Positions 18,638 through 60,439 of a DNA stretch of 64,000 nucleotides are shown here, in pieces. Under the pieces are notes generated by a model. It had not been told where the DNA came from. It worked only from the letters and a program-made list of their open reading frames with translations, and searched no databases. The number at the start of each line of letters is the position of its first letter. Position 1 is the stretch's first letter. The stretch is from a virus, in IMG/VR virus record IMGVR_UViG_3300018079_000001, positions 37,822-101,821 of that record. One strand, written 5' to 3'. The translations under genes and the position numbers were made by a program.

Positions 18638-20272
18638 ATGGAACTGCTGAAAGCATTCAAGGCCGCCCGCGTGGCGGCGGTGCCGATTGTCGCCGTGTCG
18701 TGCTTCGACCCGGCCGACGTGATCAAGAAGATTCGCGCGTCGAACGAAGAGGGCGCGAAGACGCCGATCCCGCTTGTGCAGTGGGATGCAATGGACGGAA
18801 TGAAGGGCCTGAACACGGCGGGCAAGGCGGCGGTAGCTGCCGTGCTGAAGGGTGACGAGAAAGACTGGCCGGGCATGACGAGCAACCCAGGTGCCGCGCT
18901 CGGGTTCATGAGCGAGCTACCCGGCGAGCAACGCGAGGGCGGTCGGCCGGACGGTGCCATTCAAATGCGCGGTACGATCGTGTTCGCCCTGAACCTGCAC
19001 AACTACTTCGAGGATCGGCCGAGCAAGGAAAACGCGCCGATCGTGCAGGGCGTGTGGAATCTGCGGGACCGGTTCAAGGCCAACCGGCGCACGCTCGTGG
19101 TGCTCGGGCCTGGCTTCAAATTTCCGGCTGAGATCGCGAATGACGTGATCAGCCTGGACGTGCCGATGCCGACCGACGAGGAACTGACCGCGATCATCGC
19201 CAAGGAAGTTTCGGGTGTCGCGGGCCTCGCTGCGCTGGACGAGAAGACGATGCAGTCCGCCGTTGATGCGGTGCGCGGGCTGCCGAGCGCGTTCACGGTC
19301 GAGCAGGTATCGCGGATGTCCATGACGAAAGAGGGCATCGCGATCGACGAGTTGTGGGAGCGGAAGATCAGTACGATGGAGATGACTTCGGGCCTGAGCG
19401 TGGACCGGGGAACCGAGACGTTCGATGATGCAGGCGGGCTGGACCAGTTTAAGACGTTCGGTCTGCGGCTGGTCAAGAGCGAGAAGTCGCCGCTTCTGTA
19501 CGTGCGCATTGACGAGATCGAGAAGTTTCTCGGTGGACTCGGTGGTGGCGGTAACGCGGGCGACAACACGGGCGTGTCTCAGGATGCGCTCGGGGTGTTC
19601 CTGCGCGAGATGGAAGACAACGGCTGGAATGGCCTGATCGCACTCGGCCATGCCGGCGCGGGAAAGTCGCTGATCACGAAGGGCCTCGCGAATACCGCCT
19701 CGAAGCTGACCGGGCGGCGGGTCCTGAGTGTGGCTCTGGACCTGGGTGCGACGAAGAACAGCCTGCTCGGTAAGAGTGAAGAGAGGTTGCGCACTCTATT
19801 CAAGGTGCTCAAGGCGGTCGGGGGTAAGCGCGTGTGCTTCATCGCCACGTGTAACGACCTGGACGTGATGCCGCCTGCTCTGCGTCGGCGGTTCAAACTC
19901 GGTATGTGGATGTTCGACTTGCCGACCCGCCCGCAGAAAGACGCAATCTGGAAGATCAACCTGACGAAGTTTGGTCTGAAGAAGCCGGCACGGCTGCCGG
20001 ACGATACGGACTGGACTGGCGCAGACATTCGTAACGTGTGTGAGCAGGCCGATCTGCTTGGTTGCTCGCTGGACGAGGCGTGCAACTACGTCGTATTCGT
20101 CGCGAAGAACGACCCGGACAGCATCTCGCGTCTTCGGGCCAAGGCGGACGGGAAGTACCTGGACGCCAACCGGCCTGGTGTGTATCGGGCCGCGCGACAG
20201 GAAGAGCTAGTGCCGAGCCTGGACGCTCCAACGCAGGGGCGAGCCAAGGTGAGCACGGACGAGGAAGTCTAA
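18638..20272 (+). CDS. AAA+ ATPase (Ycf46-like), C-terminal DEEV tag
   Basis: IDEIEK Walker B-like, GHAGAGKS Walker A, ATCN, PPALRRRF and WTGADI motifs. Confidence 0.85.
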   Translation: MELLKAFKAARVAAVPIVAVSCFDPADVIKKIRASNEEGAKTPIPLVQWDAMDGMKGLNTAGKAAVAAVLKGDEKDWPGMTSNPGAALGFMSELPGEQREGGRPDGAIQMRGTIVFALNLHNYFEDRPSKENAPIVQGVWNLRDRFKANRRTLVVLGPGFKFPAEIANDVISLDVPMPTDEELTAIIAKEVSGVAGLAALDEKTMQSAVDAVRGLPSAFTVEQVSRMSMTKEGIAIDELWERKISTMEMTSGLSVDRGTETFDDAGGLDQFKTFGLRLVKSEKSPLLYVRIDEIEKFLGGLGGGGNAGDNTGVSQDALGVFLREMEDNGWNGLIALGHAGAGKSLITKGLANTASKLTGRRVLSVALDLGATKNSLLGKSEERLRTLFKVLKAVGGKRVCFIATCNDLDVMPPALRRRFKLGMWMFDLPTRPQKDAIWKINLTKFGLKKPARLPDDTDWTGADIRNVCEQADLLGCSLDEACNYVVFVAKNDPDSISRLRAKADGKYLDANRPGVYRAARQEELVPSLDAPTQGRAKVSTDEEV

Positions 20273-20623: not shown

Positions 20624-21568
20624 ATGAGCACGATCCCAACAACGGCAACGGTCATGGAGCAGAGCGTCGCGTTTGTCCTGGCCTTCTCACGCCCCGGCGT
20701 CAAGCGGGTCGTGCGGAAGTCGCAGGTGTCCGAGAAGAGCGAGGGCACCGACAACGCGGTTGTCGTGGATGCCGACAAGAGCATGATCAACGTCGGCAAG
20801 GAAATCATTGACTCCCCGCAACTGCGGGCGATCATCTCGCGCGATGGCGCGGTCCGCCAGTGGGTGAAGGCGCGCAGTCTGCCGAGTCCGCTGTTCAAGT
20901 CGGGTACGACGATCGTGCCGACTGTGCTCGTCGAGGCGGTGTACGAGTACCTCGAAAAGTCGAAGGCTGATCGGGACGCCGACATCGCGACGTTCCTTGA
21001 AGCCTACCCTGGCCTGGTCGAGGAAGCGAAGACGAAACTAGGGCCGCTGTTCGACGCTCGTCAATACCCCGCCGCGACGGCACTCAAAGGCGCGTTCGAG
21101 ATGCGGTGGAACATCATCGAATTCGGGACGCCCGGCAAGCTGAAGACTATCAGCAAGGCTCTGTACGATAAAGAGCGCGCCAAGGCCGAGGCCGAGTGGG
21201 CGGACGCCACGTCGCAGATTCGCAACGCGCTTCGCGTGGCGATGGCGGAACTGGTCGAGCACATGATCGAGAAGCTGTCGTCGGACAACGACGGCAAGGC
21301 GAAGACGTTCCGCGATAGCATGGTCAAGAACCTGACCGAGTTTTCCGATTTGTTCAACGCACGCAACCTGACGGGCGACTCGGAGTTGGCAGCACTCGTC
21401 GAGAAGGCGCAGAAGGTCATGAGCGGCGTGGACGCGAAGTCACTGCGGACTGACGCCGACATCAAGCAGCGTGTGGCTGATGGTTTCGCGGAGATCAAGG
21501 CGAACCTCGACACGATGGTGATTGACCGCCCGACGCGGGCGTTGACGATCGCTGACGAGGAAGTCTAA
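20624..21568 (+). CDS. DUF3150-like helical protein, C-terminal DEEV tag
   Basis: Y...LG.LF....YP and K.FRDS...NL..F..LF...NLTGD.EL pattern; AAA-module context. Confidence 0.55.
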   Translation: MSTIPTTATVMEQSVAFVLAFSRPGVKRVVRKSQVSEKSEGTDNAVVVDADKSMINVGKEIIDSPQLRAIISRDGAVRQWVKARSLPSPLFKSGTTIVPTVLVEAVYEYLEKSKADRDADIATFLEAYPGLVEEAKTKLGPLFDARQYPAATALKGAFEMRWNIIEFGTPGKLKTISKALYDKERAKAEAEWADATSQIRNALRVAMAELVEHMIEKLSSDNDGKAKTFRDSMVKNLTEFSDLFNARNLTGDSELAALVEKAQKVMSGVDAKSLRTDADIKQRVADGFAEIKANLDTMVIDRPTRALTIADEEV

Positions 21569-22387: not shown

Positions 22388-22882
22388 ATGTGGCCGGGCG
22401 AGTTTCCTGACGATGCGGGTAGTGCCAGTGGTGACTGGACTGTCCGCCTGGTTGGCCGTGCGCTGATTGAAGCCACGGCGGCGAGCACGGGTAAACCGTT
22501 CATGGCGCGGATTGTAGGACGTGACAATACGTACACGTGGCAGCGTCAGTGGCTCAAGCCGAAGTGGGAGTTTCCCGCGCGCAACGCGAACCCCGCCGCG
22601 ATCGTGCGGCTGGTCCTGCCTGTGTCTGCTGTCGGCAAGTTGCCGGCTGCTCTGGACATACGGTGGGGGCCAGCGACGGGCGGCACGGGTATCGACGTGA
22701 AGAACGGACAGGCGTTTCGCTACTGCGGGTATCGTAGTCTGTTTATCCTGGACGCGGCTGGCTTGCGGCAGGCGACTGAGCAGCACGTGACGTGGCTGCT
22801 CGACGAGGGCATCGTGGTTTCCGGACCACCACGTCGTGAGCCGGGCTCGCGCCCGGTGCTGAGGTTCGATGAAGAAGTTTGA
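22388..22882 (+). CDS. hypothetical protein, C-terminal DEEV tag
   Basis: 164 aa; ends SRPVLRFDEEV. Confidence 0.6.
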   Translation: MWPGEFPDDAGSASGDWTVRLVGRALIEATAASTGKPFMARIVGRDNTYTWQRQWLKPKWEFPARNANPAAIVRLVLPVSAVGKLPAALDIRWGPATGGTGIDVKNGQAFRYCGYRSLFILDAAGLRQATEQHVTWLLDEGIVVSGPPRREPGSRPVLRFDEEV

Positions 22883-22911: not shown

Positions 22912-23478
22912 ATGGCGACAACGGTAGAAAAACGACAATTCAAAAGCAGCCGCCCCGGATCGGCGGCACTGTATACCGCCGTCGTGTACGACGACGGCAC
23001 CGCGTCCTGCGACTGCCCTGGCTGGCGGTTCCAGCGTTCAGGCCAGCCGCGAGGCTGCAAGCACACCGCCACCATGTTGACCGGCACAACGGTCAAGGTG
23101 GTGACGAACGCCGAGATGGCGCGCATGGCGTTGCGTGGTGAGCAGTTCAACGTGATCAAGCGGTGGACGATTGCGCAGAGCGGCGCACAGATGGTGAGCC
23201 TGCGTATGGGGGAGAGCGCGTCTGCCGAGCAGACGGTGCGTCGGATCATGAAAGAGGATAACGCACCGCAGTCTTACCCGGCGCGACGGGATCGCTGGTC
23301 GCAGGCTGAGGGGAAGTGGGTGTCGGTGCCGAAGAAGATGACGCCCGAGATGCGCACGCCTGATCCACTGGCGGCGCGGGACTTCTTTCCGTCGAAACCG
23401 AAGCCGCAGACGACGCGGCGTGCAGAGCAGATCGAACAACCAACACGAGCACGCCTAGCGTTCGATGAAGAGGTATAG
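22912..23478 (+). CDS. SWIM zinc-finger protein, C-terminal DEEV tag
   Basis: SCDCPGW...CKH SWIM motif; ends TRARLAFDEEV. Confidence 0.75.
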   Translation: MATTVEKRQFKSSRPGSAALYTAVVYDDGTASCDCPGWRFQRSGQPRGCKHTATMLTGTTVKVVTNAEMARMALRGEQFNVIKRWTIAQSGAQMVSLRMGESASAEQTVRRIMKEDNAPQSYPARRDRWSQAEGKWVSVPKKMTPEMRTPDPLAARDFFPSKPKPQTTRRAEQIEQPTRARLAFDEEV

Positions 23479-23480
23479 TC

Positions 23481-23864
23481 ATGATAGTTCTGAAAGAGAT
23501 GGACCCGTTCAAGCTGAAAGAGTACGTGCACGCTATTCAGCGGTGCGGTGATCACCCGTTGCCGGGTCTGACCGACAGTGACGTGCTCGACAAGGTTGTT
23601 GAAATTCTCGACTGCTACATCGAATCGGCCGAGACGTACGAAGACACGTCGTCGAAGATCATCTTCCTGCTCGACGATGGGCGGGTCGGTGTGTTCGAAG
23701 AGTGGTCCGACTCGTCGGGTCACGGCTGACAGTGCGGCGCATCGTGGGGGCTGTATGCTTCCAAAGACGCAGCATGCACTGAGGGCAAGCTGGTATGGGA
23801 TGAAACCGCGACGCTAATCGAGCGGCTGCAACGGGCGCCGATTGCGTTCGATGAAGAGGTATGA
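23481..23864 (+). CDS. UGA-interrupted protein (in-frame TGA 23727-23729), C-terminal DEEV tag; Sec/read-through candidate or pseudogene
   Basis: ...WSDSSGHG*QCGASWG...RLQRAPIAFDEEV* in one frame. Confidence 0.65.
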
Positions 23865-23945: not shown

Positions 23946-24022
23946 CGGGGAATCGTCTAGCGGCCAAGGATGCCGGTCCTTCAAACCGGAAGACGCGGGT
24001 TCGAATCCCGCTTCCCCGACCA
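23946..24022 (+). tRNA. tRNA-Glu(UUC), atypical C33
   Basis: CGGGGAA/TTCCCCG acceptor, Glu-type D arm, CCGGT-CCTTCAA-ACCGG anticodon arm, TTCGAAT loop, CCA. Confidence 0.85.
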
Positions 24023-24023
24023 C

Positions 24024-24113
24024 GTAAGCGATGGGCGAATTGGCTGAGCCCGCCTGTCTGTAAAACAGGCGCAGTGACCCTGCATGGAGGTTCGATTCCT
24101 CCCGCTTGCACCA
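24024..24113 (+). tRNA. tRNA-Tyr(GUA)
   Basis: CCTGT-CTGTAAA-ACAGG arm, long variable arm, TTCGATT loop, ACCA end. Confidence 0.9.
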
Positions 24114-47744: not shown

Positions 47745-48259
47745 TGCCTTCGCTCGGTGACGGATTCAGCATGGACACAGCGAATGTTTGCCTCTGTGGT
47801 CATTGGAGCGCGTCGCATCGTGGTGGTGGTAAGGCAACGTGCGAGGGTATGCGCTGTGGCTGTTACACGTTCAGGCAATTGACCACGGAGAACTGCGGGG
47901 TCGGGGTGAACCTGCCCAAGTGCCCGAAGTGCGGGTCAGTGCTCACGGGCCGGACCGTGACGCTCGGAGCGCGCGGTATGACACTGATCGTAGAATGGAA
48001 GCACCTGATGGGTAACTCGTGCAAGACGATCGAGCAAGTCAAGATGGACGAAGAAGCGGCAGAGCGGATCAAGGCTGAAGCACGTCAGCGCAACACATTT
48101 GGTGACGCCGGGGCGTTCGATGAAGACGAGTTCGAGTACGAGTACACACTGGACGATCCGGTAGGAGCGAAAGCCAAGGCGCGGGCCGTCCCGAAGCCTG
48201 AGCCGCCAAAGCCTGAACTGACTGGACGCGCCCCGCTGGCGTTGGAGGAAGAGGTATGA
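47744..48259 (+). CDS. Cys/His zinc-binding protein, C-terminal EEEV tag
   Basis: C.CGH...H...C...C.C and CPKC; ends TGRAPLALEEEV. Confidence 0.6.
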   Translation: MPSLGDGFSMDTANVCLCGHWSASHRGGGKATCEGMRCGCYTFRQLTTENCGVGVNLPKCPKCGSVLTGRTVTLGARGMTLIVEWKHLMGNSCKTIEQVKMDEEAAERIKAEARQRNTFGDAGAFDEDEFEYEYTLDDPVGAKAKARAVPKPEPPKPELTGRAPLALEEEV

Positions 48260-52124: not shown

Positions 52125-52349
52125 GTGGCACCACGCGACGCGGACGAGCCTGGACCACGCTGCACGTGTAGGCATACGAAGGCGCGGCATGCGAGTCCGG
52201 GATGTCTCGTGTACCTGGAAGACGCGTCTGAGTTCTGTCCATGCGCCGTGTACACGAAGCCTGGCTCACCCAAGGCGAAGGCTAGGGCGAAGACACTAGC
52301 CGACTTCTTCCCGGTGCGGGCCAGGCTCGCGTTCGACGAGGAAGTGTGA
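52125..52349 (+). CDS. small Cys/His protein, C-terminal DEEV tag
   Basis: CTC.H...H...C...C.C; ends VRARLAFDEEV. Confidence 0.6.
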   Translation: MAPRDADEPGPRCTCRHTKARHASPGCLVYLEDASEFCPCAVYTKPGSPKAKARAKTLADFFPVRARLAFDEEV

Positions 52350-52862: not shown

Positions 52863-53144
52863 ATGCCGGGATTTGCTGAGCAATTGGACGAATCGCGCCT
52901 GGACGACGTGCTGACCTTCGAGGGCCAGTCGGTGACTCGGCGTGACGCACAAGTGCTCCTGGCGCAGATGGTGCCGGGCTCCGACCTGGTGGACGCCGTC
53001 AAGCGGATCGCACGAGCGCGCAACATGGGGTTTTCGCAGTTCGGGAGTGAGTCTCCGATTGTACCCGTTCCGCCACTGTTCGAGCCGATGCCGCTGCCCT
53101 ATCCTGATAAGCGGGCGCCGCTCGACTTCGACGAGGATGTGTGA
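52863..53144 (+). CDS. hypothetical protein, C-terminal DEDV tag
   Basis: Ends KRAPLDFDEDV. Confidence 0.6.
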   Translation: MPGFAEQLDESRLDDVLTFEGQSVTRRDAQVLLAQMVPGSDLVDAVKRIARARNMGFSQFGSESPIVPVPPLFEPMPLPYPDKRAPLDFDEDV

Positions 53145-59947: not shown

Positions 59948-60439
59948 ATGGGTGTAAGCGACGGCGGTGAGGGGTGGGTGTTTCAGGCTCCTTGGGCGCC
60001 TTGGGATGCCGCGCAGCCGAAGCCAACCACGCGCCAGCCGATCGACCAGGACATGTGCAAGTGCGGACACGCATACCCCGAGCACAAAGCCAACGGGTGC
60101 AGCTTCCGCGAGACGGTGTTTGCGGACATTGCGCGGAACGGTCCTTCGGGGCCGCAGTGCGAGTGCAAGAAGTTCGAGTTCCGGTACGGGACGGACATGG
60201 CCCGTCTGGAAAAGGTGATGAAGGACATCATGGCCTTGACGTTGGCGAAGCAGGACGTGACGTTGCAGGACATCGAGAACATTTTGCGCCCGGTGCTTGT
60301 GGGAGAGCCGAAGCCGATTTACGTGGATCGACCCGTGCCAGCGCCGGCTGAGCCAGTGCAGAAGGTGGTCGATCGGTTGTTCTCGGTCAAGCCGACACTC
60401 GAAGGACGCGCATCGTTTAACCTGGACGAAGAGGTATGA
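59948..60439 (+). CDS. Cys/His zinc-binding protein, C-terminal DEEV tag
   Basis: CKCGH...H...C...C.C..F; ends EGRASFNLDEEV. Confidence 0.6.
   Translation: MGVSDGGEGWVFQAPWAPWDAAQPKPTTRQPIDQDMCKCGHAYPEHKANGCSFRETVFADIARNGPSGPQCECKKFEFRYGTDMARLEKVMKDIMALTLAKQDVTLQDIENILRPVLVGEPKPIYVDRPVPAPAEPVQKVVDRLFSVKPTLEGRASFNLDEEV

Follow-up and report, generated by a model that had tools for sequence, protein, structure and literature searches.

Is the UGA that closes an 82-codon open reading frame of an uncultured tailed phage the end of the protein, or is it decoded as an amino acid? The locus lies in a 64,000-nucleotide stretch of DNA (hereafter the window), which comprises bases 37822–101821 of a 101,821-bp IMG/VR virus record, an uncultured 102-kb phage with 123-bp direct terminal repeats. 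An encoded portal protein, helicases and a DnaB-like helicase identify it as a tailed phage; its genes lie nearly always on the plus strand, and its GC content is 59%. Positions given below are those of the window.

The open reading frame (ORF) begins at ATG 23481, ends in SDSSGHG and stops at TGA 23727–23729. Past this codon, the frame continues as QCGASWGLY...RAPIAFDEEV for 44 sense codons up to a stop at TGA 23862–23864, with no in-frame ATG, GTG or TTG within the extension and with a Cys two codons 3' of the UGA (GHG-TGA-Q-C, read as U-Q-C). A first-pass annotation of this DNA had pointed out the 82-aa ORF, the open codons without a restart, the nearby Cys and the perfect tag RAPIAFDEEV at the end of the extension, all of which we confirmed from the sequence. 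According to a genome-wide comparison, open extensions after stop codons are common in this phage and carry no weight alone, and the extension of this ORF is the sole one that lacks a restart codon yet bears the tag. The significance of the open frame depends on the tag and, above all, on the homologues. We consider it likely that 23481–23864 encodes a 126-residue phage selenoprotein, in which selenocysteine (Sec) is inferred without selenium or protein data. The features of the gene are as follows:

23470..23473, plus strand: GAGG, Shine-Dalgarno-like motif 7 nt before ATG 23481, read from the sequence, function inferred
23481..23864, plus strand: proposed complete selenoprotein gene (82 codons, Sec-UGA, 44 codons and terminating TGA), 126-residue product, with homologues spanning both halves
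23544..23555, plus strand: codons for C22-G-D-H25, the conserved N-terminal Cys/His pair of the family; C22 nearly invariant, CxDHP consensus in alignment A1
23718..23735, plus strand: core motif G80-H81-G82-U83(TGA)-Q84-C85; GHG invariant, Cys at the UGA column in 134 of 143 family proteins
23727..23729, plus strand: in-frame UGA, proposed selenocysteine codon, residue 83; TGA at the same column in 18 of 19 related loci
23832..23861, plus strand: C-terminal tag RAPIAFDEEV, common to at least 8 other proteins of this phage and missing in the orthologues of other phages
23862..23864, plus strand: terminating TGA with no hairpin behind it; 12 of 15 distinct UGA-form genes likewise end in TGA

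The UGA aligns with a conserved cysteine

An exhaustive HMMER search of 1.8 billion cluster representatives yielded 39 matches and alignment A1; three long proteins of this set (P0008, P0036 and P0037), which lack the GHG motif and are probably spurious, were left out. GHG is invariant in the alignment, and every full-length homologue carries a Cys at the UGA column, within the motif SD[ST][ST]GHG-C-[QR]-C. Seven other proteins from the same search, 38–57% identical to the query, terminate exactly after GHG. A profile search brought the family to 223 proteins; 143 were examined; the motif GHGC[QRWS]C is present in 134 of them, and 8 stop at GHG.

Pattern scans of IMG/VR and metagenome contigs retrieved 19 related loci, with TGA as the codon after GHG in 18 and TGC in one; TAA and TAG never occur there. 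Loci L009–L013 and L019 come from groundwater metagenomes of Hainich. The Cys codon is TGC or TGT in nine loci. In the UGA-form loci, TGA is followed by [Q/R]-C and by 20–45 conserved open codons, whose translations resemble the Cys forms (VYPTxEEA, LGLTxEDRE). Removal of duplicates left 15 distinct UGA forms from IMG/VR and metagenomes, 30–59% identical to the window's protein, and the UGA is kept, along with a co-varying hairpin, by 14 other diverged phage sequences. The first-pass annotation had named as a check on Sec that homologues should have Cys at this position and that the TGA should be independently conserved; this proved positive, with 134 Cys homologues and 15 distinct TGA sequences. 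A recent nonsense mutation, which it had also entertained, is contradicted by the presence of TGA in those 15 diverged sequences.

When an HMM was trained exclusively on the segments that follow the Cys in 135 Cys forms, it matched the in-frame post-UGA peptide in 15 of 15 UGA forms, with E-values from 7e-16 to 0.065, whereas off-frame translations of these stretches, used as controls, reached E = 0.3 at best. In close pairs, the number of synonymous differences 3' of the UGA equals or exceeds that of nonsynonymous ones: L005 and L011 differ by 5 synonymous and 0 nonsynonymous changes, L007 and L015 by 6 and 4. The tail matches and the synonymous excess indicate that the post-UGA sequence is translated and under purifying selection.

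On a FastTree phylogeny of 148 family members, computed from 136 alignment columns with the Sec/Cys column masked, the UGA state changes 7 times, and at least 2 changes are forced by well-supported branches; the count is approximate because the tree rests on so few columns. The clade containing the window's sequence has full support; its members are 9 UGA forms and a single Cys form (P0002). Repeated exchange of Sec and Cys is the usual pattern in selenoprotein families.

An isolated assembly error is an unlikely source of the TGA, since databases list exactly this 82-aa product for 5 contigs, drawn from three sources (JGI/IMG, Logan and ENA), although the reads themselves were not seen. Word-based and cultured-phage searches returned only the window's own 82-aa product; cultured phage genomes gave no match to 5 kb of the locus by megablast or to the read-through protein by tblastn. 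IMG/VR searched with the single protein gave no match either, and the relatives came from an alignment-based query. Scans of 185,579 prokaryotic species genomes (one per species) with UGA-form and Cys-form patterns detected no relative, and family members were found only in metagenomic and viral contigs. The family is apparently restricted to phages.

A predicted SECIS-like hairpin follows the UGA

Two nested RNA features were defined downstream of the UGA:

23730..23781, plus strand: extended imperfect helix starting directly after the UGA, −26.7 kcal/mol, z = −2.47
23745..23763, plus strand: apical SECIS-like stem-loop UGGGGGC / UGUAU / GCUUCCA, loop start 22 nt after the UGA, GU at 23753–23754

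The extended helix (z = −2.5 after rounding) was equalled in stability by 4 of 200 shuffled sequences, and its conserved part is the apical stem-loop. The first-pass annotation had placed a weak hairpin just after the UGA, with arms TGCGGC...GCTGTA. A hairpin is indeed present and is stronger than had been described, but these arms are wrong, the conserved stem being that at 23745–23763.

Per-sequence folding predicted an equivalent hairpin in 15 of 15 UGA forms, with a stem of 5–9 bp and a loop of 3–7 nt that starts 20–23 nt after the UGA. Every one of these loops contains GU (UGUAU, CGUGU, AGUU, GUC, GUU and others). Minimum free energies over 30 nt range from −6.8 to −16.3 kcal/mol in the UGA forms (mean −11.5), compared with −0.6 to −7.7 kcal/mol (mean −4.0) in nine Cys-form controls, where the hairpin is absent. 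The difference is significant by a Mann-Whitney test (p = 4e-5), a value inflated by kinship, as the UGA and Cys forms are related sequences and the test overstates their independence.

The stems vary in sequence and encode different peptides (ASWGLYAS, AGWVVYPT, GAVEVFDS, GDGGEFAT, GDASRFDS and others). In a loop-anchored comparison, the two arms of a given sequence pair at 5 of 5 positions in all 12 distinct hairpins, against an average of 2.9 of 5 once an arm is taken from another sequence; C-G, U-A, A-U and G-C are all found as the closing pair and are compensatory variants of it. Most hairpins are also unusually stable relative to synonymous recodings of the same peptide. The exceptions are 4–5 sequences of the WVVYP subgroup, which are no more stable than their recodings; this test is weak in that subgroup because the peptide itself favors a hairpin. 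RNAalifold applied to the codon-register alignment recovered only 5 pairs, a weak result attributable to offsets of up to 2 nt between the hairpins of different sequences; the comparison was therefore made with per-sequence folds and loop anchoring instead.

The reference for a SelB-binding SECIS is E. coli fdhF, with G23/U24 in the loop, and bSECISearch places the apical loop about 16–37 nt from the UGA. By this comparison, the position, size and loop GU of the hairpin fit a SelB-binding bacterial SECIS, with the reservation that all structures are predicted. Rfam, SECIS families included, gave no family at E ≤ 10 except one chance lncRNA match; bacterial SECIS elements are poorly represented in Rfam (preprint, 10.64898/2026.04.03.716425).

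Published criteria for recognizing a new selenoprotein family in metagenomes comprise at least two sequences with a conserved TGA, Cys homologues, and a stem-loop directly downstream with a G in the apical loop (PMC1976440). All are met here, by TGA in 15 distinct sequences, by the Cys homologues and by a stem-loop with loop GU. The further criterion of homology beyond the UGA, which applies to a bacterial-type selenoprotein gene, is met by the tail HMM, the synonymous excess and the fold model described below. Sec insertion by host machinery, the first of the explanations put forward in the first-pass annotation, is thus supported by the Cys/TGA comparison and by a hairpin found only in the TGA forms, with Sec inferred and not measured.

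TGA remains the main stop codon of the phage

Among the 145 genes predicted in the genome, TGA is the stop codon used most often (69 genes), and among the 15 distinct UGA-form genes it is the terminator in 12. Since most UGA-form genes end at a second TGA, recoding is local and not genome-wide. Using ARAGORN and the Rfam tRNA and tRNA-Sec models, we identified six ordinary tRNAs in this phage (Glu, Tyr, Pro, His, Thr and Asn). Neither this phage (G000) nor any of four related records contains a UCA anticodon, a suppressor tRNA or a tRNA-Sec, and selA, selB and selD are likewise missing from the five phage records. Two of the related genomes (G001 and G004, 98–100% complete) have no tRNA gene at all and keep both UGA and hairpin; a third (G003) has only a tRNA-Arg and an odd tRNA-like gene. 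The use of TGA as a stop and the absence of such tRNAs exclude genome-wide reassignment and a phage-borne suppressor as general explanations.

Genome-wide reassignment of TGA, as under codes 4 or 25 or in recoded phages, had been considered as a candidate and was rejected, given that TGA ends 69 of 145 genes as well as this one and that no tRNA with a UCA anticodon is present.

Several tRNA genes near the locus or in related phages have unusual features. A tRNA-Glu (UUC) lies at 23946–24022, 80 nt after the proposed Sec gene. Its anticodon loop is CCUUCAA, with C33 in place of the near-universal U, and a one-base shift to CUUCAAA would read UGA. Adjacent to it, at 24024–24113, is a 90-nt tRNA-Tyr (GTA) with a long variable arm, whose anticodon is not UCA; it is the genome's best match to the tRNA-Sec model but falls below threshold (35 bits against a cut-off of 47). 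The tRNA-like gene of G003, which carries a UGA form, is located on the minus strand at L026:1501-1606 (G003:C1:50461-50566). It scores 35.5 bits against the Rfam tRNA model and 11.9 bits against tRNA-Sec, has 42 nt at the position of the anticodon arm (17 nt in the model) and is not called by ARAGORN; it may be an intron-containing or otherwise aberrant tRNA.

Because the phage records carry no Sec genes, the host must supply selA, selB, selD and tRNA-Sec. Leads to that host are weak. The portal protein is only 25–30% identical to that of any cultured phage, its matches being portals of Streptomyces and archaeal viruses, and the SLT protein gave no more than weak leads to Rokubacteria, Methylomirabilota and Binatota (scores 0.82), which are groundwater and soil phyla. 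As the species-genome scans returned no relative, there is no prophage from which the host could be read.

The UGA lies within a predicted single-sheet domain

The AF2 model of the read-through protein (pLDDT 86, pTM 0.77) consists of a helix packed on a four-stranded sheet, the sole sheet of the protein. The UGA lies inside this β-sheet domain, at the invariant Cys, and the fourth strand (residues 84–92) and two helices fall after it, suggesting that the 82-aa product would be an incomplete fold if the model is correct. Conserved residues comprise C22 and H25 after helix 1, D77, and G80-H81-G82-U/C83-Q/R84-C85 at the turn into the last strand.

No relative of the family was detected in Pfam, PHROG, NCBIfam or PDB sequences, and fold searches of the PDB (Foldseek and VIA-align wide) and BFVD produced no convincing match. 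The best Z-score was 5.3, for cystatin-like rolls, with levivirus coat proteins also at about 5, which is not informative; Foldseek E-values were 0.003 or worse. Protein-atlas neighbors of the Cys homologue P0002 are exclusively viral hypothetical clusters, and no conserved gene neighborhood was found among 15 loci. The best reading, which relies on the predicted model, is a new small α+β fold in an unannotated phage family.

In most families, Sec/Cys pairs are catalytic redox cysteines, and in a few they are metal ligands (FDH, [NiFeSe] hydrogenase). On the strength of these known roles alone, U83-x-C85 is inferred to be probably either a redox-active selenenylsulfide or part of a Cys/His metal-binding centre.

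Two variations in domain architecture were noted among the homologues. Five Cys forms (P0009, P0017, P0020, P0021 and P0035) contain an extra four-Cys insert (CxC...C..C) at about columns 95–125 of alignment A1, between the first helix region and the sheet, which points to a second metal site in some family members. In P0034 (382 aa), the GHGCQC domain is C-terminal, at residues of about 313–362, so fused forms exist.

The C-terminal tag is shared by nine ORFs of this phage

The ending R-[AP]-x-h-x-h-[DE]-E-[ED]-V followed by a stop closes nine otherwise unrelated ORFs of the genome, with TGA as the stop in six. It is a shared C-terminal tag whose partner is unknown. Its sites in the window are:

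20243–20272
21539–21568
22853–22882
23449–23478
23832–23864
48230–48259
52320–52349
53115–53144
60410–60439

An AAA ATPase and a SWIM-finger protein are among the tagged ORFs, together with the proposed Sec protein. No homologue in the HMMER search aligned over the tag; the proposed Sec protein is tagged in this phage only, and its orthologues in other phages do without. The upstream SWIM gene supplies the GAGG motif at 23470–23473 through its final tag codons (GAA GAG GTA TAG), and the SWIM gene and the proposed Sec gene are probably translationally coupled.

Discussion

Conservation of the UGA, its alignment with Cys, coding beyond it, covariation of the hairpin and its link to the UGA, and the local character of the recoding are observed directly in the sequences compared here. 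The explanation we favor, and hold to be probable, is that of a phage-specific family that has switched repeatedly between Cys and Sec, in tailed phages that carry a bacterial-type SECIS and use the SelA/B/C/D of the host. The phage would infect a selenocysteine-using bacterium, in which a ribosome arriving at UGA 23727–23729 would meet the downstream hairpin, whose apical stem-loop at 23745–23763 would act as a bacterial-type SECIS. The hairpin would recruit SelB-GTP-Sec-tRNA(Sec) of the host, an interaction that is inferred, and Sec would be inserted at residue 83 in competition with RF2; that this residue is Sec is an inference as well. Translation would then proceed for 44 codons and terminate at the second UGA, which has no SECIS. 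In the product, U83 would form a U-x-C pair in the turn before the last β-strand, beside the invariant H81 and, judging by conservation, C22/H25, the chemistry of the site again being inferred. The tag RAxhxhDEEV would be present on the product, as on other early proteins, in this phage only.

Other explanations, which collectively keep roughly one chance in five by our reckoning, concern either the residue inserted or whether the codon is read at all. A hairpin-aided local decoding of UGA as something other than Sec is improbable in our view but is the most serious of them. Cys, for example, could be delivered by a near-cognate tRNA-Cys, or by a SelB-like factor working with a selC-like tRNA of Cys identity; UGA-to-Cys recoding by SelB-like systems has been proposed for some bacteria, and the Cys alignment, the conserved UGA and the hairpin would fit equally well. 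Such a device would offer no advantage over TGC or TGT, which most family members keep, whereas the family's repeated alternation of TGA with TGY is what is classically seen for Sec and Cys, and the loop GU and spacing fit a SelB-type SECIS. Programmed leaky termination of the Q-beta A1 type, giving mostly the 82-aa protein and a few tagged long forms with Trp or another residue, would draw on the C that follows UGA in 15 of 15 forms, UGA-C being a weak termination context, and on the DEEV tag that the extension adds in this phage. We rate it as still less probable: that C is dictated by the conserved Q/R codon, which is present in the Cys forms too, the codon sits at an invariant Cys in mid-domain instead of between domains, what follows the UGA is homologous to the core of the Cys forms, and orthologues in other phages lack the tag. 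Plain suppression, also raised in the first-pass annotation, is unlikely on similar grounds, since the codon falls at the invariant Cys inside the fold and TGA ends the same genes 20–45 codons later.

Two further possibilities seem to us hardly tenable. The tRNA-Glu at 23946–24022, read one base out of register (CUUCAAA), could be an opal suppressor of this gene, and it does have C33 and does lie 80 nt downstream; ARAGORN calls it Glu-UUC. What renders such a role unlikely is that related UGA-bearing phages lack tRNAs: G001 and G004 keep UGA and hairpin without any tRNA gene, and G003 has only its tRNA-Arg and the odd tRNA-like gene. A general suppressor would moreover read through the 69 genes that end in TGA, and Glu at an invariant Cys is implausible. 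To the same slight degree we allow for a pseudogene, or for a sequencing or assembly error at the TGA, with only the 82-aa fragment or nothing made. A change from TGY to TGA takes a single base, and gene callers do record the 82-aa product; this must be set against 15 distinct sequences with TGA, a conserved open frame downstream with an excess of synonymous differences, the identical product on 5 contigs from three sources, and the intact in-frame tag.

If selenocysteine is indeed inserted, phages can exploit the UGA-recoding machinery of their hosts, and gene callers would systematically truncate such genes, as in the 8 database proteins here that end at GHG. A Sec gene would limit the host range of a phage to Sec-using bacteria and could serve as a marker for host prediction. 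The U/C-x-C and His centre would then be important enough to the phage to repay the cost of Sec insertion, and the gene would point to a phage requirement for Sec chemistry in a tagged early protein of new fold. We found no description of a phage selenoprotein gene among 8.4 million full texts. A marine survey reported few or no viral sequences among selenoprotein families (PMC9402790), and the only viral selenoprotein genes in a 2021 review of viral recoding are the GPx1 gene MC066L of molluscum contagiosum virus and GPx4 of fowlpox virus (PMC8310308). In the literature searched, no virus of bacteria is reported to carry bacterial-type Sec recoding, which here would occur in a protein family that is itself new.

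The locus can be compared with several known systems. The conserved C22, H25, H81, U/C83 and C85 recall the redox CxC/UxC and Cys/His metal centres of small proteins, and the four-Cys insert of several Cys forms suggests metal binding or thiol chemistry; unlike those proteins, this one matches neither thioredoxin-like nor known zinc-finger families in sequence or fold. With phage stop-codon recoding, whether genome-wide TAG/TGA reassignment with suppressor tRNAs or Q-beta A1, it shares a phage gene read through a stop. Here, however, a single codon is involved, TGA is still the main terminator, no suppressor tRNA is present, and the inserted residue matters because it replaces an invariant Cys; in contrast to A1-type read-through, the UGA lies inside a domain and not at the end of a complete one. 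Like the poxvirus selenoproteins, this would be a virus-encoded gene decoded by the Sec machinery of the host, and the fowlpox SECIS also lies inside the coding region. The poxvirus genes, however, are captured cellular glutathione peroxidases with a eukaryotic kink-turn SECIS, whereas the SECIS-like element of this gene is of the bacterial kind, its host would be a bacterium, and the apparently phage-specific family is of unknown function. A further comparison is with bacterial selenoprotein genes in which SelB reads a SECIS inside the ORF (E. coli fdhF as prototype, and the families that Zhang and Gladyshev defined from metagenomes, PMC1976440). Unlike these, the present gene resides in tailed phages that would borrow the decoding machinery from the host, and it has no relative in 185,579 species genomes or in Pfam, PHROG, NCBIfam or the PDB. 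As in those genes, homologues have Cys where the in-frame UGA stands, the UGA is immediately followed by a stem-loop with G(U) in an apical loop some 20 nt further on, exchange of Sec and Cys is scattered through the family, and gene callers truncate the gene.
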